This document shows, in pieces, positions 1 through 9,087 of a DNA stretch of 64,000 bases (its first letter is position 1; every line of letters begins with the position of its first letter). The stretch comes from Escherichia coli (lineage in GTDB: Bacteria; Pseudomonadota; Gammaproteobacteria; Enterobacterales; Enterobacteriaceae): the NCBI RefSeq assembly GCF_030384885.1, contig NZ_CP128613.1; one strand, written 5' to 3'. The translations under genes and the position numbers were made by a program. The notes under the pieces were generated by a model. That model was not told where the DNA came from, did no database searches, and saw only the letters and a program-made list of their open reading frames with translations.

Positions 1-111
1 CACTTCAAAGTAGCGAAAATAGTTACCGTGCCAGGCCACGCCCATCATATCGACGTCGTGAAATGGAATGATCAGCTCGACTTCAGCGGTAAATCGGGGA
101 TCGTTAAGCAC
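1..111 (-). CDS. hotdog-fold acyl-CoA/acyl-ACP thioesterase, N-terminal fragment (gene runs off window start)
   Basis: Reverse complement of 1-111 reads VLNDPRFTAEVELIIPFHDVDMMGVAWHGNYFRYFEV from a GTG at 109-111, immediately after the stop of the upstream gene; the ...HDVD..GVAWHGNYF pattern is typical of 4HBT/YbgC-type thioesterases. Start codon uncertain. Confidence 0.5.
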   Translation of the reverse strand, partial: MLNDPRFTAEVELIIPFHDVDMMGVAWHGNYFRYFEV

Positions 112-114
112 CCT

Positions 115-1791
115 TTACTCCTTGTCCTGGACTTCCGGCAGTTGCCAGAAATCGAAAAAATTAAACCAGTCGAGGGGCGACTGGAGCGCGTGATGTTCCA
201 GACGCGCGGCGTAATGATCGATAGCGTTTTGCAGCGCCTGCTGGCGTTCGCCACGCGGCAACAGCAGCGGGTCGGCAAAGGTTTCGCAGTGAATATGCAG
301 CTTGCCGTGCTGGCGCAGGGCGAAAATCAGATTCACCGGGCAGCGCAAAATAGAGGCGAGAATAAACGGCCCCTGTGGGAAGGGCGCAGGCTGGCCCATA
401 AACGGACTCCAGCAGACGCGCCAGTCGCCGCCGCGTTGCGGGTTGATGGCGATGCGGTCAGCAACAATCGCCACCCATTCGCCGTTATCCAGCTTCTCTT
501 TTAGCAGGATGGCGGTGTCCGGGCCGATATCCGTCACCGGGAGCAGGTTGATGCCTGCCTGCGGGGCCATCTCCTGCATTATCTGTTTAAAACGTTGGGC
601 GTTTTCGCTAAACACCAGCGCGTTAATGGTTTTGTAGCCCTGAATTTTTGCCAGCGCCCGGCACACTTCCACATCGCCAAGATGCGAGGCCAGCAGCAAT
701 TTGCCGCGCGGATCGCTGACGTTAAGTGCCGCTTCTGCGCCTGGTGCAAACAGCACATCACGCCCGAGTTGCAGCTCGCCGCGCCAACTGGCGATTTTGT
801 CGAGCATGGCGTTGCCGAAACGTAGAAAGTGCTGATAGCTGTTGAGTTTTGCTGCCTGTGGTTGATGCTGGCGCACACGGGCGAGCCAGTCTTGCGACGC
901 TTTGCGCGCCCGGCTGGCGGTGAGCCAGTAGACGCCCACCACCGGGTAAAGCAGCGCGGTAAACGCCGTTCTTCCCAGCAGGCGCCAGACCAGCAGCATC
1001 AGGCGCATTCCCCATAATCCTTTCACTTCGCTCTGCCGCGCCCAGTGGCTGGAAGAGTGGCGCATCAGCAGCGAAGGAATACGCGGCAACATGCCGAAAA
1101 ACAGGCGCGTGTGCATGAGCGAGATGCGGACGTTATCTTTCAGGGCATCAAAGTGCGAAAGCCCGTCCAGCGGATAGGTGACGCGAGTCGGCACGAAATA
1201 GCTGGTGTTTCCCTGCCAGTAGAGGCGCACCATCACTTCGGTGTCGAAATCCATCCGCTTGCCGATGGTGGCGTGTTTTGCCAGTTGCAGCGTTGGCGCA
1301 ACCGGATAAACGCGAAAGCCGCACATGCTGTCTTTCAGTTGCAGGGAGAGCGTTTCGATCCACACCCAGACGTGGGTGACCCAGCGCCCGTACAGCCGTG
1401 AGCGGGGGATGGAGTCATCGTAAATTGGCTGGCCGGAGATCAGTGCCGCAGGGTGTTGTTCAGCGAGTGCCAGCAGTTTGGGGATATCTTCAATCGCGTG
1501 CTGACCGTCGGCATCCACCTGTACCGCATGGCTGAACCCCGCGTCTGCCGCTGCCTGTAAGCCGCGCATTACCGCCGCGCCTTTGCCTGCGTTTTCTGCC
1601 AGGCGAATTAATGTCACGCCAGGCTGTTCGGCAACCAGATTATCCAGTTGCTGTTGCGTGGCGGCATCGCTGCCGTCATCCACCACAATACAGGGCAGAT
1701 TAAATGGCTTAAGACGCGCCAGCACGCCCGGCATCATTGCGCCGTGGTTGTAGCAGGGGATCAACACGCAGGGAGAAAAGTTTACCGACAT
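115..1791 (-). CDS. bifunctional family-2 glycosyltransferase / LpxL-like lipid acyltransferase (ApeJ-like)
   Basis: 558-aa ORF; N-terminus has GT-A signatures (LIPCYNH, VVDDGSDA, VDADGQH); C-terminal half resembles lauroyl/myristoyl (HtrB/LpxL-family) acyltransferases. Family assignment by pattern recognition, not search. Confidence 0.8.
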   Translation of the reverse strand: MSVNFSPCVLIPCYNHGAMMPGVLARLKPFNLPCIVVDDGSDAATQQQLDNLVAEQPGVTLIRLAENAGKGAAVMRGLQAAADAGFSHAVQVDADGQHAIEDIPKLLALAEQHPAALISGQPIYDDSIPRSRLYGRWVTHVWVWIETLSLQLKDSMCGFRVYPVAPTLQLAKHATIGKRMDFDTEVMVRLYWQGNTSYFVPTRVTYPLDGLSHFDALKDNVRISLMHTRLFFGMLPRIPSLLMRHSSSHWARQSEVKGLWGMRLMLLVWRLLGRTAFTALLYPVVGVYWLTASRARKASQDWLARVRQHQPQAAKLNSYQHFLRFGNAMLDKIASWRGELQLGRDVLFAPGAEAALNVSDPRGKLLLASHLGDVEVCRALAKIQGYKTINALVFSENAQRFKQIMQEMAPQAGINLLPVTDIGPDTAILLKEKLDNGEWVAIVADRIAINPQRGGDWRVCWSPFMGQPAPFPQGPFILASILRCPVNLIFALRQHGKLHIHCETFADPLLLPRGERQQALQNAIDHYAARLEHHALQSPLDWFNFFDFWQLPEVQDKE

Positions 1792-2135
1792 AGGCGGATC
1801 TTCCCGCTACTGGCGGTGTGGCGGGCGTCACCGTCGTGACGCTGATAACTAAAGCTCAGAATCTGGCGTTCTTCCTGCCAGCTAAGCGTGAGTGTGACGC
1901 GGTTATCCGGCAGCAATGGAGCCTGGAATTTGATGTTCTGAATGGAGTGAAAACGCCAACCGGGCGCGAGCAGGGCAAGCGCGTAACTCATCGCCCAGTC
2001 GATTTGTGCCACGCCGGGGAGTAATGGTTGTACGGCAAAATGACCGCGAAACCAGAACAGATCTGCCCTGAGATGCAAAACAATCTCAAGGTGATTCACT
2101 TGTGCCTGATGGCGCTCGATTTCATGGGGCTTCAT
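1782..2135 (-). CDS. FabA/FabZ-like hotdog 3-hydroxyacyl-ACP dehydratase
   Basis: Motif FRGHFAVQPLLPGVAQIDWAMS resembles the FabZ motif F.GHFP..P.MPGV; start placed at the ATG (2133-2135) preceded by AGGAG rather than the track's upstream ATG at 2165; overlaps the upstream gene's stop by 14 nt. Confidence 0.75.
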   Translation of the reverse strand: MKPHEIERHQAQVNHLEIVLHLRADLFWFRGHFAVQPLLPGVAQIDWAMSYALALLAPGWRFHSIQNIKFQAPLLPDNRVTLTLSWQEERQILSFSYQRHDGDARHTASSGKIRLCR

Positions 2136-3483
2136 GAAATAACTCCTGTAATTGCGCATAGACACGCTTGTTCATACTGTTTACTGGCATTTCATCAATA
2201 ACGCGCCAGTAACGCGGAATAGCAACTGGCTCCAGCGTCGGGCGCAGTAATCGCCGCCAGGCCATTTCCTGGCTGTGCCCGCCGCCGTTTTGCCATTGCA
2301 GGCGAGCTTCGTCATCCAGCACCAGCAAAACGCCAATACTCTGACGCCCGCCGCGCGTAACGGGAACTGCCGCCGCCTCGTGAATACCGTCCAGCGCCAG
2401 CAGACGTTGTTCTACTTCCTGGAGTGAAATGCGTTTTTCTTCAATCTTAACGATGCGTCCGCGACGCCCCATCAGATGGAACTGGCCGTCTTCGCTAAAC
2501 TGCAAGATATCGTCGAGTAACAGGCCGCTATCTTCCTCCATCAGAGGTGAAAAGAGACGAAAGGCATCATCTTCGGCCTGGAACTGCATACCTGGAAAGG
2601 GCCGCCAGCGGCGTTGCTCTTGTTCGCGGTAACGCCAGGCGATGACGCCGGTTTCCGTGCTGCCGTAGATTTCATCAGGCCAGACGCGCAGCCAGCTCGC
2701 GGTGTGTTGTACGTCCTGCCACGGTAGTTCACCGCCAGCGGACAGAAGCACCTGAACGGGGGGCGGGGATAGCTGAGCATCCAGACGCTTCAAAAATGCC
2801 GGGCTGCTGATGAAGATATAGCGATGCTGATGACTCAACGCGGCAAACTGTTCGACATACCAGAGCATGGCGGCATGGAGCGGTAATCCCAGCGCCATGG
2901 GCAGGAAAACGCGAAAAGTCAGGCCGTACAAATGCTGCGGCAATACGGAACCGATGACACGACATCCGGCAAGACGTGCGCCTAATCGTTCAGCCAGCAG
3001 TTCTGCTTCACGGTCCAACAAACGAACAGGTTTAATCACCCGCTTCGGCTGCCCTGTGGAACCAGAGGTAAACAGCTCGATATAAGCGTCTGGCGCTATA
3101 GCGGCAAAGGTGAATGATTGTGTCGCGACTTGTGGGGAGCTTGCTACCAACTGCAATGAACCTTGGCAGTTAAGTTCGCTGTCGCTAAGCACACCATCGA
3201 ACAGTTCACGTTGCTCGTTAAGCTGGATGACGCGGTTATGCCCCGGAAGCACCGGTGTTTTTCCGGCGTGTAGCGTGGCGAGCAGGGCAACGATAAACAG
3301 ATAGCAGTCCTCAAAGCACAGCGCCCAGCGTTCACCTGGTTGTTGCTGTAAACGGCAGATAAGTTGCGAGACATCGTGACGCAAATCGCCCAGCGTCCAG
3401 GTGCTTTCGTCCAGCCACGCAATGGGCGTGTCATCAGAGCGTGGCGCAGTCAGCCAGCGTGCAAGCGGTAAGGTCTGCTTCAT
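2122..3483 (-). CDS. AMP-dependent synthetase/ligase (acyl-ACP/acyl-CoA synthetase-like)
   Basis: TSGSTGQPK AMP-binding motif; start placed at the ATG that overlaps the upstream TGA as ATGA (3480-3483); the track ORF extends to 3522. Confidence 0.8.
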   Translation of the reverse strand: MKQTLPLARWLTAPRSDDTPIAWLDESTWTLGDLRHDVSQLICRLQQQPGERWALCFEDCYLFIVALLATLHAGKTPVLPGHNRVIQLNEQRELFDGVLSDSELNCQGSLQLVASSPQVATQSFTFAAIAPDAYIELFTSGSTGQPKRVIKPVRLLDREAELLAERLGARLAGCRVIGSVLPQHLYGLTFRVFLPMALGLPLHAAMLWYVEQFAALSHQHRYIFISSPAFLKRLDAQLSPPPVQVLLSAGGELPWQDVQHTASWLRVWPDEIYGSTETGVIAWRYREQEQRRWRPFPGMQFQAEDDAFRLFSPLMEEDSGLLLDDILQFSEDGQFHLMGRRGRIVKIEEKRISLQEVEQRLLALDGIHEAAAVPVTRGGRQSIGVLLVLDDEARLQWQNGGGHSQEMAWRRLLRPTLEPVAIPRYWRVIDEMPVNSMNKRVYAQLQELFHEAP

Positions 3484-4061
3484 GAGCGATCTCTTTTCAT
3501 CACCTGACGGCGCACCAGCCATTCACCAGCCATTAACGTCCCCATCAACAAATAAGCAATCATGCCGTTCCAGGCAGTCCATAACGACATATCGCCATGC
3601 AGCGCGGTAAAGAGGGCAATTCCGCCGTTGATGATGAAAAAGCCGCACCAGATTTGCGTGACGTGGCGGGTATAGCGCACGCCCTTTTCCGGGAGGTCTG
3701 GCTCCTGCAAACGCGCCAGCCGCTCAACAATTGGCATTGCCGACCACAGCGAACCGCCAAAAACCGCCAGCATTACCGCGTTAACCACTACCGGGTAAAA
3801 CAGCAGTAGCTGGTGCGTTTTCAACAGAAAGCTGGCAACACACAAGGCGATACCCACAACAGCGACGATTTGTGTGACGGCTTGTAGCGGCCCGGCCTGG
3901 CAACGAGTCTGGCGCAGGCGCAATAAAAGCAGCAGCGCCATCAGCGGCAACAGCCAGTGCAGGCCGTTATGTGCCAAACCAAGCCAAATCACAAACGGCC
4001 AGGCGAGCAGCAATAATCCAGTCAGCAGTTTAATAATCGGTAGCGAGCGAATGCCCGACAT
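3480..4061 (-). CDS. integral membrane protein of the lipid-biosynthesis cluster
   Basis: 193-aa ORF, several hydrophobic segments, co-directional and translationally coupled within the cluster. Confidence 0.7.
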   Translation of the reverse strand: MSGIRSLPIIKLLTGLLLLAWPFVIWLGLAHNGLHWLLPLMALLLLLRLRQTRCQAGPLQAVTQIVAVVGIALCVASFLLKTHQLLLFYPVVVNAVMLAVFGGSLWSAMPIVERLARLQEPDLPEKGVRYTRHVTQIWCGFFIINGGIALFTALHGDMSLWTAWNGMIAYLLMGTLMAGEWLVRRQVMKRDRS

Positions 4062-4065
4062 CAGA

Positions 4066-4317
4066 TCAGGCTTCTTGTAGCAGGCGTTCTACGGCCTCTA
4101 CGACATCCCGGACTGTACGCACTGCTTTAAACTCTTCCGGCTTGATTTTCTTACCGGTTTTCTTTTGCAGATGCACAATCATGTCAACGGCGTCGATGCT
4201 GTCCAGTTCCAGATCTTCGTACAGGCGCGCTTCAGGTTTGATGTCCTGCGGTTCGATTTCAAACAGCTTAACCAGCAGAGCTGAGACTTCCTGATAGACG
4301 GTTTGTTGTTCTGTCAT
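4066..4317 (-). CDS. acyl carrier protein
   Basis: 83 aa, acidic, LDSIDAVDMI phosphopantetheine-attachment motif. Confidence 0.85.
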   Translation of the reverse strand: MTEQQTVYQEVSALLVKLFEIEPQDIKPEARLYEDLELDSIDAVDMIVHLQKKTGKKIKPEEFKAVRTVRDVVEAVERLLQEA

Positions 4318-4328
4318 GATGGCTTTCC

Positions 4329-4586
4329 TCAGGCACGTTGTGCAGCAATAAAAGAGGCCAGAGTGGCGACAGAGAAAAAGTGCTGACGCATCTCTTCACT
4401 TTCCGCAGAAAGTACAACGCCATATTCATTTTTCACTGCCAGCCCCAGTTCCAGGGCATCGATAGAGTCCAGCCCTAAACCGTCGCCAAACAGTGGCGCG
4501 TCGGTATCGATATCATCAGGAGCCAACTCGTCCAGATTGAGGGTGCTGATGATGAGATTTTTAATTTCCAGATAAAGCGCTTGCAT
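4329..4586 (-). CDS. acyl carrier protein
   Basis: 85 aa, GLDSIDALELG phosphopantetheine-attachment motif; 5' end overlaps the upstream acyltransferase gene, so the exact start is uncertain. Confidence 0.8.
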   Translation of the reverse strand: MQALYLEIKNLIISTLNLDELAPDDIDTDAPLFGDGLGLDSIDALELGLAVKNEYGVVLSAESEEMRQHFFSVATLASFIAAQRA

Positions 4587-5382
4587 TATTTATTCCTGAG
4601 AGAGGTAAACAACCTTGTTGTAATTGAAGCAAAAGATGCCGGTTTAACTGCCTTGCTGCTAGCGCCGGTTCTTGTGAAGTTGCATCGTAAAATTTATTGA
4701 TTTCTACCCGCCCACGGACTTCAACCGTAAAAAGTGGCCTGGCAGGTGGAACGTCATACCATTTACTTTGTTTATCCAGCAGATGCTCGCTACAGCCGAT
4801 CGTCACGATGCGTAAATCGCTGGCGCAGCGCACGGCAATATTCGCCGCACCGCGCTGTAACGTCATTTTTTCACCAGGCTTCGTCCGCGTGCCTTCGGGG
4901 AAAATCAAGATAGTGTCGCCCTGTGCCAGTCGCTGTTGGCAACGGGGTAAGAGAGTTTCAGCTTCGCTGTTGATTAAATAATCTGCCGCCCGCACGACGC
5001 CGCCAAGAAAAGGATTTTTTAACAGCGCGCTTTTTACCAGGCAGTCAGTTTCTGGCATGACTGATGCCAGTAGTACGTAATCGATAAGCGTGGGATGATT
5101 AGCTACGACGAGGCAACCGCGTTCCTGACGTAAAATTTCAGCCCCATCAATACGATAATCCAGCACGCCAAGCCCTTTTGCGACTGTTAAAAACAGACGA
5201 AAACTGGCGGCAATGCTGCGACGCGCCAAACGACGGCGGCGGGAAGTGTTCCACACCAAAACTAACAGTACGTTAAACCACACCACAGAGAGTAGTAGTC
5301 CGCCGAGGCCAAACAGGGCAAAACACAACCCGGTCATAACCAGTCGCCATGTCCATTCCAGGCGTGACATCAGCTTACTCAT
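4561..5382 (-). CDS. PlsC-family (lysophospholipid/1-acylglycerol-3-phosphate-like) acyltransferase
   Basis: 273 aa; N-terminal transmembrane segment, NH-x4-D motif (ANHPTLID) and FPEGTRT motif. Confidence 0.8.
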   Translation of the reverse strand: MSKLMSRLEWTWRLVMTGLCFALFGLGGLLLSVVWFNVLLVLVWNTSRRRRLARRSIAASFRLFLTVAKGLGVLDYRIDGAEILRQERGCLVVANHPTLIDYVLLASVMPETDCLVKSALLKNPFLGGVVRAADYLINSEAETLLPRCQQRLAQGDTILIFPEGTRTKPGEKMTLQRGAANIAVRCASDLRIVTIGCSEHLLDKQSKWYDVPPARPLFTVEVRGRVEINKFYDATSQEPALAARQLNRHLLLQLQQGCLPLSGINNASALSGN

Positions 5383-6125
5383 CTACGGCTCCAGCGCCAC
5401 TGTACGCGCTCACCAGGAAGTGAAAAAGCATCTGAATTTTGTAAATAGTGCTGTAAAAACAACATGCTTTGCGGCAGTGTTGTTTCATTGCCCGCAATGG
5501 CTGGCTGTGTTTCACATTGCCACTCATCGCCAGCTTCAATCACCAGCGCAACAGCATATGGCCAGGTCGGCATTTCTGCTGGGAGCTGCGGATGATAGAA
5601 CTCAGGTAGAAAGCCATCAAAATCGACCATCAACACACGCTGGTATCCCGCTTGTAGCAGGCTAAGCACTTCACTCAAACCTTGCTGGAAAGTGTCGCGA
5701 CCAGCCGAAAGCGATGACGAAACGATCGGCTGTTTGGCCGCAATGGTCAGGTTACCCACGGAAGAGTTGTGTACTGAAAGTGCAAAGTCGGTGGGGGAAA
5801 GCGCCTGTTCAGTTGCCAGTGCATGAACAATGCGGTAATTGCGCTCCAGTTCGCCATGACGACTGGTATACAAAACGGCGTCTGGCTGATGGCGGCGTAG
5901 CATTGCCAGGCCGCATTCAACAGCCAGTTTGCTGCCTGAACTGAGGCGGCGGGCGGTCATCATTGGCAGTTCACTTAATTTTGCCAACGGCGCGGCAGGG
6001 TCAATCGCCCACGGCTGGCGCGACCATGCTTGCCATTGCTGCGCTTCGCTAAGTCCAGGCGCCAGTGCCTGCCAGTCGGTAATATTTAATGTAAATTTCA
6101 TCAACGCGCGCCCGCGGTAAACCAA
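5379..6125 (-). CDS. hypothetical protein, possibly beta-ketoacyl-synthase N-terminal-like domain (chain-length-factor-like)
   Basis: 248-aa ORF with ATGA overlap to the downstream acyltransferase; function inferred only from position in the cluster and vague resemblance; needs an HMM search. Confidence 0.6.
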   Translation of the reverse strand: MVYRGRALMKFTLNITDWQALAPGLSEAQQWQAWSRQPWAIDPAAPLAKLSELPMMTARRLSSGSKLAVECGLAMLRRHQPDAVLYTSRHGELERNYRIVHALATEQALSPTDFALSVHNSSVGNLTIAAKQPIVSSSLSAGRDTFQQGLSEVLSLLQAGYQRVLMVDFDGFLPEFYHPQLPAEMPTWPYAVALVIEAGDEWQCETQPAIAGNETTLPQSMLFLQHYLQNSDAFSLPGERVQWRWSRR

Positions 6126-6141
6126 AATTATTAAGTGACGA

Positions 6142-7209
6142 TTATTTCTTTTGGCATATCAAAAGAGTATGCCCAACGCCTAAATTATCGTGGCGCTCTG
6201 CTACCTGAAATCCTGCTTTATTCAGATAGTCGTAAAATTTCTCTGCACTATAGAAACGGCTGTTACCGTTTGCCATGCAGGTGAAATAAAGTGAGGACGC
6301 GTTCAGGCTAAATGATGCTGCTTCAAACCGCTGCGCATCCCAGAACAACTCCATGATGCAAACTTTTGCGCCAGGCTTCATTACGCTGGCGATTTTGCTG
6401 AGTATGCTAATTATTTGTTCGGGTGAAAAACAGTCTAAAAATTGGCTCATCCACCAGATATCAGCCTCGCCCGGTAATGGGGCATCGCTTAGCATATCCA
6501 CCGCATGGAAATCTATGCGATCAGAAAAACCTGCATTCGCGATATTTTCTTTCGCTAGTACGATTTGTTGTGGCAGATCTAATAACGTCACGGCGATGTT
6601 TTCATTGTATTTGCAGCAACGCAAAGCCCACTTACCCGTATTGCCGCCTACATCGTACAATGTTGTGGGGTTGTTGGCGAATACATAAGGCAGTGCGGCG
6701 TTAAATGCGCCATCTGAATAGTAATGATCAAACGCAAACCAGCTTTCACGAGCGGCATCTGGTAATTGTGAAAGTGCGGGATATATCGTCGACCAGTCGC
6801 CAAATACTTTTAACCCGGACGGTTTTCCTTCATTGAGTGAATCGGCGAGGAAGAAGAGCCCCTGATAGCAGACATCCTGGGTGAAATCCATATTCACGCG
6901 AGTCATAGTGTCATGCAGGAGGTAATGACCGATTTTCGCCAGGTAATACATTCCCTCTTTACAGGTAATAATTCGCCCGCTTAAGCCCATATCTAACAGA
7001 ACGCTGGCCGCATATTCGTTGATATGGCTATGTTCGGTGATATCAGCCAGCGTTGCGCCATGTTTGCCTTGCCGATCCAGATATGAAAGTACACCCGCAT
7101 TACGTAGGCAGAGAGCTGTTTGAAAAAGCATGGGGGCAAAGGCAATGCGTTGAGCTTCGGTAATCGCATCCAGTGCGCTAAGAGAATCCTGTTCGTACAT
7201 GTTGGGCAC
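6142..7209 (-). CDS. class I SAM-dependent O-methyltransferase
   Basis: 355 aa; VGGNTGKWA glycine-rich SAM-binding motif followed by LLDLP...DM..D, typical of O-methyltransferase family 2. Confidence 0.85.
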   Translation of the reverse strand: MPNMYEQDSLSALDAITEAQRIAFAPMLFQTALCLRNAGVLSYLDRQGKHGATLADITEHSHINEYAASVLLDMGLSGRIITCKEGMYYLAKIGHYLLHDTMTRVNMDFTQDVCYQGLFFLADSLNEGKPSGLKVFGDWSTIYPALSQLPDAARESWFAFDHYYSDGAFNAALPYVFANNPTTLYDVGGNTGKWALRCCKYNENIAVTLLDLPQQIVLAKENIANAGFSDRIDFHAVDMLSDAPLPGEADIWWMSQFLDCFSPEQIISILSKIASVMKPGAKVCIMELFWDAQRFEAASFSLNASSLYFTCMANGNSRFYSAEKFYDYLNKAGFQVAERHDNLGVGHTLLICQKK

Positions 7210-7268
7210 AACCTGTTAAGAGGGAATTAAATTATTATCGGACCGAAGCGGCCCGACTTTAGGGGAAA

Positions 7269-7658
7269 TTACAAATCTGCGCCAGCCGACAAATTCAGTT
7301 GAATATCTTTGTCGAGATTGCGGACCCAGCGATTATAGTTTTTATGAATTTGTCCGCCTGATGCTTGCAGGTTCTGACTATTTTCATAATTGATATCGTA
7401 GCTGGATGCCGTGTAGTTAATGCGAATTTCGGCTGAATGATCGCGTGACTGTTGACGTGCTTTAATTACGCCTTGTCCGGCTTCGGACATAATCCATTTG
7501 CGTTCAACGCCAGCTTTCAGAATCGCTTTTTTCACTTGTTCCGGGGTATGACCAGCGCTGACGGTTGAGTGAACCTGATCAATTGGCGCAGTACGCGCGC
7601 AACCCGCTAAAGCACCCACAACAGCAATAGCCGCAAACCATTTCATGTAATGTCTCAT
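7269..7658 (-). CDS. small lipoprotein, first gene of the cluster in this window
   Basis: 129 aa; signal peptide with lipobox LAGC (MKWFAAIAVVGALAGC); exact start (7658 vs 7646) uncertain. Confidence 0.65.
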   Translation of the reverse strand: MRHYMKWFAAIAVVGALAGCARTAPIDQVHSTVSAGHTPEQVKKAILKAGVERKWIMSEAGQGVIKARQQSRDHSAEIRINYTASSYDINYENSQNLQASGGQIHKNYNRWVRNLDKDIQLNLSAGADL

Positions 7659-8037
7659 TAGAATCCCATTAAAGTATTGTTTTTACGAGTAAAGCAAGAT
7701 TTAACTGTAATTGCTGGCATCACTATTCTTTATTTAGCGAAAAAATTACTTGTGAGATAAGTCAGTAAGTGCACATCAGAGTAAAAATTTCTGAAATGAC
7801 TAAATTACTGCCAGCGGGGACCAACTATAAGTGAGTGAGAAAAATGAGGCAATAAAAATAACAGATTGTTATCAGTGCATTCTTTGAGAGGGATTTAATC
7901 GCTATTCGGCGTTTATATATATTTGACTTAAGGAATGGTTTTTATAAATTAATTGTCTGAATAATGTTTCTTCATTTCCTCAAATCAAATGGCCACTGTT
8001 AGATAAACGGTGGCCATTGCCTGCTCAGGAGGTGCTA

Positions 8038-9087
8038 TTAACCTGGTAACCGACTTTTCGGTCTGCCCGGCCCCAGTAAGATCGCCAGTTTGCTACCGCC
8101 TTTGGTGGTTTCCATCCAGATTTTACACACGCTGGTTAATGGTACCGAAAGTAGCATTCCAACCGGGCCGAGCAGCCATCCCCAAATCAACAATGAAAGA
8201 AATACCACCATGGTGGACATCCCCAGGCGATGGCCCATCATCCGCGGTTCTAAAATATTGCCGATGACCATATGGACAACTAAAAACAATGCGCCGACCA
8301 GAATACATTCGTAAACGCCATTAAACAGCAGCACCTGAATCATTGGCGGTACGGCGGAAATTACCGCGCCGATATTGGGGACGTAGTTAAGCAAAAACGC
8401 CAGTACCGCCCACATCAGCGCAAACTGTACACCCATAAGTTCCAGCCCCAGCCAGACGATAATGCCTGTCCATAAACTTAGCAGTGTCTTCAATGCAAGA
8501 TAGTGCGAAACACCTTTTAAGGCGCGGTGTAGTCCGGCGATGTGAATCTGTGGATTATTCAACGCAAAACGCATTTTGTAAGGGACGTGGCGCACTTCAA
8601 ACAGCATGAAAACTACGGTCATCACCAGCAAAAGCACGCTCGCCATTGCCCCGGAAAGCCCGGTCATTAGCGCCGTGGTGAAGGTAACCACTTTTTCCGA
8701 GTCCATCCGCTGCAGCATTCGCTCCGGCGACATATGCAAATTAAGAAAAGGCAACATCTCCTGCAATTTAAAAAGCTTGCGCGTCAGCTCCTTATTAAAC
8801 TTCGGCAGCATAGAGATAAATTCGTTAAACGAAGCTGCCAGTACACCGACCAGTGCGGTAAGTGCGATCAGCATCACCACCACCACAATCGTAATTGCAA
8901 CGGGGCGTTGTACTCCGCGACGAATAAACCAGGTGACGAGCGGGTTGAGGACGATGGCAAAAAACAGCGCCAGTAACAGTTGCACAATGATATCTGCCGC
9001 TGCGTGAATGCCCGCGAGGATTACTACCAGCGAGGCCAGTTTAAGCAGAATGTGCATGCCCGTTTTATCGGGTTGAGGGGTTTCCAT
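8038..9087 (-). CDS. yhhT: AI-2E/PerM-family membrane transporter YhhT
   Basis: Protein from METPQPDKTGMHILLK recognised as E. coli YhhT (349 aa); start at the ATG preceded by AGGAAG rather than the track's longer ORF. Confidence 0.93.
   Translation of the reverse strand: METPQPDKTGMHILLKLASLVVILAGIHAAADIIVQLLLALFFAIVLNPLVTWFIRRGVQRPVAITIVVVVMLIALTALVGVLAASFNEFISMLPKFNKELTRKLFKLQEMLPFLNLHMSPERMLQRMDSEKVVTFTTALMTGLSGAMASVLLLVMTVVFMLFEVRHVPYKMRFALNNPQIHIAGLHRALKGVSHYLALKTLLSLWTGIIVWLGLELMGVQFALMWAVLAFLLNYVPNIGAVISAVPPMIQVLLFNGVYECILVGALFLVVHMVIGNILEPRMMGHRLGMSTMVVFLSLLIWGWLLGPVGMLLSVPLTSVCKIWMETTKGGSKLAILLGPGRPKSRLPG

Follow-up and report, generated by a model that had tools for sequence, protein, structure and literature searches.

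What does a stable, conserved hairpin do at the head of an aryl-polyene (APE) biosynthetic cluster, between the lipoprotein gene apeA (5') and the methyltransferase gene apeB (3')? APE clusters have no dedicated regulator gene and the control of their expression is unknown (10.64898/2026.01.21.700819), and they are often silent in culture (10.1101/2020.12.19.423268). The cluster studied here lies in a 64,000-nt stretch of DNA, referred to below as the window, which matches the chromosome of Escherichia coli 2013C-4282 (NZ_CP027579.1) at 100% identity. It occupies positions 1-7658 on the minus strand and corresponds to O-island 138 of O157:H7, between yhhT and acpT, with a counterpart in strain Sakai that runs from ECs_4324 to ECs_4341. 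This version of the cluster is found in about 569 of 5426 complete E. coli genomes, and a CFT073-type paralogue is present at another locus in a further 250 or so. The names ApeA and ApeB are taken from that paralogous cluster (c1204/c1203; Johnston et al. 2021, PMC8253772). In the Sakai record, some of the old RefSeq product names are clearly wrong for ape genes, such as "DNA gyrase subunit B" for ECs_4330 and "surfactin synthetase" for ECs_4331. RefSeq carries no annotation for the hairpin, and in the literature, including searches with the locus tags c1204/c1203, ECs4324/4325 and Z4849/Z4850, we found no mention of it and no transcript maps.

The two genes that flank the junction are as follows.

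7269..7658, minus strand: apeA, lipoprotein gene (ORF list, RefSeq annotation, and homologue alignment with an invariant lipobox Cys)
6142..7200, minus strand: apeB, SAM-dependent O-methyltransferase gene (ORF list, RefSeq annotation, and Pfam), which opens the tightly packed apeB-R block

The initial annotation had placed a stem-loop between a lipoprotein and a methyltransferase gene, and both gene identities hold, with a lipobox reading LAGC in ApeA and a match to PF00891 (E = 6.6e-18) in ApeB. The limits of the spacer needed correction. On its 5' side, apeA ends with a TAA codon at 7269-7271 (minus strand). On its 3' side, the apeB start is ATG 7200, as called by PGAP and conserved in the form MYEQD, while GTG 7209, given in the ORF list, is ruled out by indels that are not multiples of three between the GTG and the ATG in relatives. 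The spacer is thus 7201-7268 (68 nt), rather than 7210-7268 as originally given. As for the apeA start, PGAP places it at ATG 7646 (125 aa), but an in-frame upstream ATG at 7658, preceded a few nucleotides 5' by GGGA, would give a 129-aa protein starting with MRHYMKWF, which fits the MKxxxKWF N-termini of most homologues. The annotated start is therefore probably four codons too short. Between the two paralogous E. coli clusters (window 6142-7658 compared with NZ_CP061206), ApeB is 94% identical and ApeA only 64% at the protein level, which makes the lipoprotein a much faster evolving protein than the adjoining enzyme. From apeB onward, in the stretch of the cluster that we examined, genes overlap or lie at most 11 nt apart, except for a 40-nt gap between apeB and apeC (6102-6141, minus strand). 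The apeB-R block looks like a single translationally coupled operon, fed by transcription arriving through the hairpin.

Reading 5' to 3' on the minus strand, the spacer contains the following elements.

7258..7268, minus strand: 11-nt linker from the apeA stop to the hairpin, UUUCCCCUAAA, an A-rich 5' flank whose CUAAAG end is conserved in many relatives
7249..7257, minus strand: 5' arm of the stem, GUCGGGCCG (folding, covariation counts)
7246..7248, minus strand: loop, CUU (folding), replaced by TTG or CTG in other E. coli strains; other species have 3-8 nt of variable sequence here
7237..7245, minus strand: 3' arm of the stem, CGGUCCGAU (folding, covariation counts)
7225..7236, minus strand: A/U-rich tail, AAUAAUUUAAUU, a degraded U-tract with 6 U in 12 nt, broken by A
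7208..7219, minus strand: conserved motif, UUAACAGGUUGU (alignment, column identity 0.66), which includes the apeB Shine-Dalgarno AGG at 7212-7214

The hairpin spans 7237-7257 and reads GUCGGGCCG-CUU-CGGUCCGAU, with nine pairs made of six G-C, one U-A and two G.U. The core that had been singled out at first, tcgggccgcttcggtccga, corresponds to 7238-7256 and is extended by flanking U-A and G.U pairs. The stem begins 11 nt past the apeA stop and ends 36 nt ahead of the apeB ATG. It is followed by the A/T-rich stretch that had also been described at the outset (AAUAAUUUAAUU, 7236-7225), then by a pyrimidine-rich stretch, and then by the motif UUAACAGGUUGU.

Folding with ViennaRNA shows that the structure is stable, with an energy for the hairpin of about -13 to -14 kcal/mol (-13.3 to -14.3). 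In its 33-nt context it reaches -14.3 kcal/mol with z = -4.08, and none of 200 shuffled sequences was as stable. The low predicted stability that could have weakened the initial proposal was not seen for the 7210-7268 interval either, which folds at -15.4 kcal/mol with z = -2.33 (4 of 200 shuffles as stable). The opposite strand folds worse than the sense strand, at -11.1 kcal/mol and z = +0.16. How often would such a hairpin occur by chance? When comparable hairpins are defined by an unbroken stem, a span of at most 26 nt and an energy of -13 kcal/mol or better, there are 16 on the minus strand of the window, about one per 4 kb per strand, and the chance of finding one in a given 68-nt spacer is about 2%. 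On this figure alone the hairpin is mildly unusual, which is suggestive only, and it is the cross-species evidence that lifts it above chance. The hairpin sequence has a single match in the window at up to three mismatches and occurs at one place per genome in the 569 E. coli genomes, and we could thus rule out a REP/BIME element or another dispersed repeat. A permissive Rfam search of 6000-8500 returned no family at threshold, the only matches being two chance-level eukaryotic snoRNAs (E = 1.3 and 4.5), far below the gathering score.

The same folding calculations bear on the possibility that the hairpin controls translation of apeB, as part of a larger fold that would hide the apeB ribosome-binding site until apeA has been translated. 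The minimum free energy structure of 7190-7290 does pair the last apeA codons with AACAGGUUGUGCC around the apeB Shine-Dalgarno and encloses the hairpin. This larger fold is, however, not significant (z = -0.56, with 52 of 200 shuffles as good), the consensus structure of 30 relatives lacks it, and the hairpin itself ends 22 nt ahead of the Shine-Dalgarno. We consider this explanation extremely improbable.

We then asked how widely the hairpin is conserved, using 80 loci with an apeA homologue, fetched from one-genome-per-species contigs by alignment of apeA homologues. They cover Escherichia, Citrobacter, Klebsiella, Enterobacter, Lelliottia, Kosakonia, Phytobacter, Atlantibacter, Mangrovibacter, Serratia, Edwardsiella, Pantoea, Dickeya, Brenneria, Hafnia, Yersinia, Morganella and Xenorhabdus. 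apeB is the next gene after apeA in about 60 of these loci, and a G+C-rich hairpin is found just past the apeA stop in nearly all 80. The distance from stop to stem is 10-12 nt in most Enterobacteriaceae loci. There, the stem is most often UCGGGCC/GGCCCGA, and it reads UCGGACC/GGUCCGA in Kosakonia and one Citrobacter, UUGGGCC/GGUCCAA in Phytobacter and Kosakonia, and AACCGGCC/GGCCGGUU in Atlantibacter. In Dickeya, Brenneria, Morganella and Xenorhabdus, apeA is followed by quite different, longer stems. Of 63 apeB-linked loci, 49 have z < -2 for the folding of the 60 nt past the apeA stop (median z = -2.96), compared with 16 of 189 coding control windows (median z = -0.24). Comparing minimum free energies of the two strands, the sense strand is more stable in 41 of 81 loci, i.e., there is no overall excess. 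A covariance model built from the alignment matches almost only the apeA-apeB junction in 696 kb of related loci. It also detects the hairpin in Enterobacter sp. EA-1 (L066), where a natural deletion had seemed to be present but was an artefact, caused by a frameshift in the assembly.

In three species the spacer is interrupted by insertions of 90-190 nt (L013:4421-4550, L015:4379-4467 and L034:4426-4615), and all three keep the hairpin. The insertion lies 3' of the hairpin in Citrobacter amalonaticus S646 and Serratia sp. DD3 and 5' of it in C. koseri. Part of the L013 insert recurs at L037:2287-2337 with 88% identity, which makes it a small dispersed repeat.

Conservation within the junction is concentrated in the stem. 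Mean pairwise identity is 0.80 in stem columns (0.875 for the inner 7 bp), compared with 0.31 in the loop, 0.42-0.51 in the flanks and 0.42 at apeA third codon positions. Among E. coli strains, the stem is invariant and only the loop varies (CTT, TTG or CTG). In the CFT073-type paralogous cluster, BLAST left the spacer unaligned past the apeB start, and AUCGGGC-N7-GCCCGAU is nevertheless kept at the same place in that spacer. These figures bear on the possibility that the hairpin is an evolutionary relic, the former terminator of a free-standing lipoprotein gene with no function left in E. coli. Its U-tract has indeed decayed, and stand-alone apeA-like genes with hairpins of their own do exist. 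A relic would, however, be expected to decay like its flanks, whereas this stem is the best-conserved non-coding element of the spacer (0.80-0.875 as against 0.42 at third codon positions), is maintained by compensatory changes (see below), stays invariant among E. coli strains whose loops differ and is retained in a paralogous cluster whose spacer could not be aligned by BLAST. We regard this scenario as very unlikely.

Stand-alone homologues of the ApeA lipoprotein, with no methyltransferase or other ape genes 3', were found in Raoultella, Pluralibacter, Cedecea and some Citrobacter and Enterobacter (at about 4001-4450 in each of L027, L031, L032, L045, L049, L050, L052, L053, L055, L057, L059, L060 and L075).

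Most of these stand-alone genes carry their own hairpin past the stop (Raoultella, Pluralibacter, some Citrobacter and Enterobacter), which indicates that the element belongs to the 3' end of the lipoprotein gene.

Is it the RNA that is under selection? To answer this, we counted paired cells in a MAFFT alignment of 43 sequences, in which three misaligned Mangrovibacter rows count against the structure. Paired cells amount to 91.2%, compared with 84.3% in shuffled alignments, and none of 500 shuffles reached the observed value. Cells changed on both sides of a pair number 28, compared with 8.6 in shuffles, and compensatory changes occur at five of the nine stem pairs. When partner columns were slid as a control, only 18-47% of cells could pair. 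At one pair that is G.U in the window, most species have G-C and two have A-U, and the G.U thus represents the intermediate step between the two. An independent RNAalifold run on 30 sequences, each covering the last 10 codons of apeA, the spacer and the first five codons of apeB, predicted the hairpin as the sole structure. The strand under selection can be read from the wobble pairs, with 47 G.U cells and 2 A.C cells, although a single inherited closing pair accounts for about half of the G.U cells. This asymmetry argues for selection on the ape mRNA strand and not on a DNA palindrome. These comparative sequence data confirm the hairpin as a selected RNA structure of the sense strand, at a fixed position after the apeA stop.

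The wobble asymmetry also speaks to the idea that the inverted repeat is a DNA palindrome bound by a dimeric regulator of the cluster, with no RNA structure involved. The repeat does adjoin the first biosynthetic gene, and which regulators act on APE clusters is unknown (10.64898/2026.01.21.700819). The 47 G.U and 2 A.C cells nonetheless mean that the symmetry is kept only as sense-strand RNA pairing. In addition, the half-sites vary freely in sequence from one genus to another and yet still pair, and a loop that varies from 3 to 8 nt would alter the spacing of the half-sites. A DNA operator is thus highly improbable.

What kind of RNA element might it be? The initial annotation had suggested a partial terminator or an RNA processing or stability element that would uncouple the lipoprotein gene from the biosynthetic genes 3' of it, and we scored terminator character with d, an approximate re-implementation of a d'Aubenton-Carafa-type function that combines stem energy per nucleotide with a weighted U-tail and that, using modern energy parameters, has a zero point that is only indicative. 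The window hairpin has the G+C-rich stem and the position past a stop codon expected of an intrinsic terminator, but not the U-run (about five or more U in 8 nt). It scores d = -22 with a tail nT of 1.85, which is below threshold, and it was not called by a terminator scan that requires 5 T in 8 nt. In 14 loci, by contrast with the window, d is above 0, including Atlantibacter, Superficieibacter, Phytobacter massiliensis, Edwardsiella, Brenneria and an Enterobacteriaceae isolate. The highest values, d = +48 to +53, are those of Atlantibacter, where AACCGGCC...GGCCGGUU is followed by UUUUUUUGUUU. By their sequence, these positive-scoring orthologous hairpins with U-runs would be textbook canonical intrinsic terminators. 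In most Enterobacteriaceae, including the window, AUAAC or AUAAU comes after the stem instead, and then a pyrimidine-rich tract with interruptions. The initial suggestion is sustained in part. The hairpin is selected, it has terminator-type orthologues, no promoter-like site lies between it and apeB, and the E. coli version lacks a proper U-tract and falls below threshold, all of which agrees with that suggestion. Actual termination at the E. coli hairpin could even be negligible.

This last point leads to the possibility of a pure mRNA stability or processing element, which would cause no termination and would shield the apeA mRNA once the A/U-rich spacer has been cut by an endonuclease, or once transcription has ended further 3'. 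The poor U-tract suits this possibility, and so does the conservation, across many Enterobacteriaceae, of a stem followed by AUAAC or AUAAU in place of a U-run. Single-stranded A/U-rich sequence is also the kind that RNase E prefers. On the other hand, orthologues at the same position in several genera are full canonical terminators, which argues for termination as at least the ancestral activity. We find stabilization with no termination at all unlikely, bearing in mind that the terminator and stabilizer roles are not mutually exclusive and cannot be separated by sequence alone.

The effect of such a hairpin would depend on where transcription starts. A consensus scan of the minus strand identified one candidate promoter upstream of the cluster.

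7824..7852, minus strand: candidate sigma-70 promoter, TTGCCT-17-TATAGT (consensus scan), identical in O157:H7 Sakai

This is the sole promoter-like minus-strand site between yhhT and apeB. The scan found none between the hairpin and apeB and none inside apeA, but it relies on crude matching to a consensus and could have missed an apeB promoter that is weak or not of the sigma-70 type. The TTAACA in the conserved spacer motif was dismissed as a -35 element, as no -10 follows, and is simply part of the ribosome-binding-site region. Directly past the yhhT stop, at 7991-8015 (minus strand), a GGCCACC-N11-GGUGGCC hairpin followed by AUUUGAUUUG is likely the terminator of yhhT, and it separates that gene from the 390-nt A/T-rich region that holds the candidate promoter at 7852-7824. 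We also considered an RfaH ops element. Its core, GGCGGTAG, is found at 8093-8100 (minus strand), inside the 3' end of yhhT, but with three matches in the window and 1.44 expected this is probably a coincidence.

Published expression data give some context. In CFT073 at 37°C, apeA (c1204) shows a log2 fold change of 1.46 and c1203-c1200 of 1.4-2.1, rising together (PMC12890032 supplement), which fits a shared promoter with read-through. An array study of RpoS lists other O-island 138 genes among those regulated, with apeA and apeB absent from them, and is uninformative here.

An arrangement in which the hairpin is an efficient terminator, making apeA a separate unit while apeB-R is transcribed from its own promoter hidden in apeA or overlapping the hairpin, has several points in its favour. 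A -10-like hexamer, GATAAT, overlaps the 3' arm and the tail, and some genera have canonical terminators at the junction. In Xenorhabdus doucetiae, the silent cluster was activated by PBAD placed directly before apeB, i.e., 3' of the junction, and not before apeA (10.1101/2020.12.19.423268), and when apeA is deleted the pigment persists, with final lipid products altered (PMC8253772). Yet GATAAT has no acceptable -35 at 16-18 nt 5', was not called by the scan, which is silent there and within apeA, and is not conserved, being GATAAC or GATACT in most relatives. In Atlantibacter, which has the strongest terminator, the apeB start follows it after only about 30 nt, too short a distance to hold a promoter. 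The tail in E. coli has too few U for efficient termination, and apeA and apeB show the same temperature response in CFT073. For these reasons, we judge a hidden promoter to be quite unlikely.

Taken together, these findings lead us to favour, with a probability of roughly 0.6, a 3'-end element of apeA that would act as a weak terminator and/or an exonuclease block, with some read-through into apeB-R. In essence this agrees with the initial suggestion, and the activation of the silent Xenorhabdus doucetiae cluster by PBAD placed 3' of the junction also counts in its favour. The element is built like an intrinsic terminator, in that a 9-bp G+C-rich stem with a short loop follows an A-rich 5' flank, and its U-tract would have degraded to AAUAAUUUAAUU in Escherichia. 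Transcription would initiate 5' of apeA, and a minority of RNA polymerase complexes would terminate on leaving the hairpin. Transcripts ended or cut in the A/U-rich stretch would be trimmed back to the stem, which would then block 3'-to-5' exonucleases. The remaining polymerases would read through into apeB-R, which has no recognisable promoter of its own. In this way, partial termination and stabilization could make apeA mRNA more abundant and longer lived than apeB-R mRNA from a single promoter, and the junction would limit the transcription entering the biosynthetic genes.

A more far-reaching version is that the junction is a checkpoint that keeps the APE cluster nearly silent, with all apeB-R transcription passing the hairpin and the outcome set by a condition-dependent factor. 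Such a factor could be an antitermination protein, one of the NusG/RfaH type, Rho, or the traffic of ribosomes reaching the apeA stop codon. Differences in U-tract strength would then adjust basal cluster output from one genus to the next. This is unlikely as matters stand, but if true it would tie the regulation of these clusters, described as the most widespread biosynthetic gene cluster family in bacteria, to a concrete cis-element. A conserved terminator-type hairpin before the first biosynthetic gene, with no visible promoter after it, suggests that apeA is expressed above the enzyme genes and that the same junction limits the entry of transcription into apeB-R. It also offers a practical hint for activating or engineering the cluster, namely to remove the hairpin or go around it, which the placement of PBAD before apeB effectively did.

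How does this junction compare with known systems? It resembles the intrinsic terminators of Enterobacteria in its G+C-rich stem of 7-10 bp, its short loop, its A-rich 5' flank and its position about 11 nt past a stop codon, and its orthologues in Atlantibacter, Edwardsiella, Brenneria and others have a full U-tract. It differs from them in its own tail, AAUAAUUUAAUU, which has no U-run and leaves it uncalled by the scan and below threshold, and in its location, since a co-directional gene starts 36 nt further on and the hairpin thus lies inside an apparent operon rather than at its end. Unlike a regulated attenuator or riboswitch, it shows no conserved alternative antiterminator structure among the 30 relatives folded with RNAalifold and matches no Rfam family at threshold; the lack of a conserved antiterminator means that there is no sign of regulated attenuation. 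Nor is it akin to REP/BIME elements, being single-copy per genome, with no other copy in the window and no Rfam match.

Two classes of internal operon elements come closer. Attenuators and partial terminators within E. coli operons include the rplL-rpoB attenuator and the internal terminator of rpsU-dnaG-rpoD, for which termination efficiencies have been measured. The ape junction has the same layout: a terminator-type hairpin stands between genes of one orientation that probably have a common promoter upstream, and it would set the ratio of upstream to downstream expression. Intercistronic hairpins that stabilize mRNA include the REP between malE and malF, the one involved in papB-papA processing in E. 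coli, and the hairpins of the puf operon in Rhodobacter. Here too, a stable stem-loop lies just past the gene for an abundant envelope or structural protein, with genes needed at lower levels 3', and would block 3' exonucleases. That the ape stem-loop is a conserved one in the spacer of co-directional genes belonging to one unit is indicated by covariation, by the absence of a promoter-like site in the spacer in our scan and by co-regulation in CFT073. The apeA-apeB hairpin, although previously unannotated, is ordinary operon punctuation, an intercistronic terminator-like hairpin.
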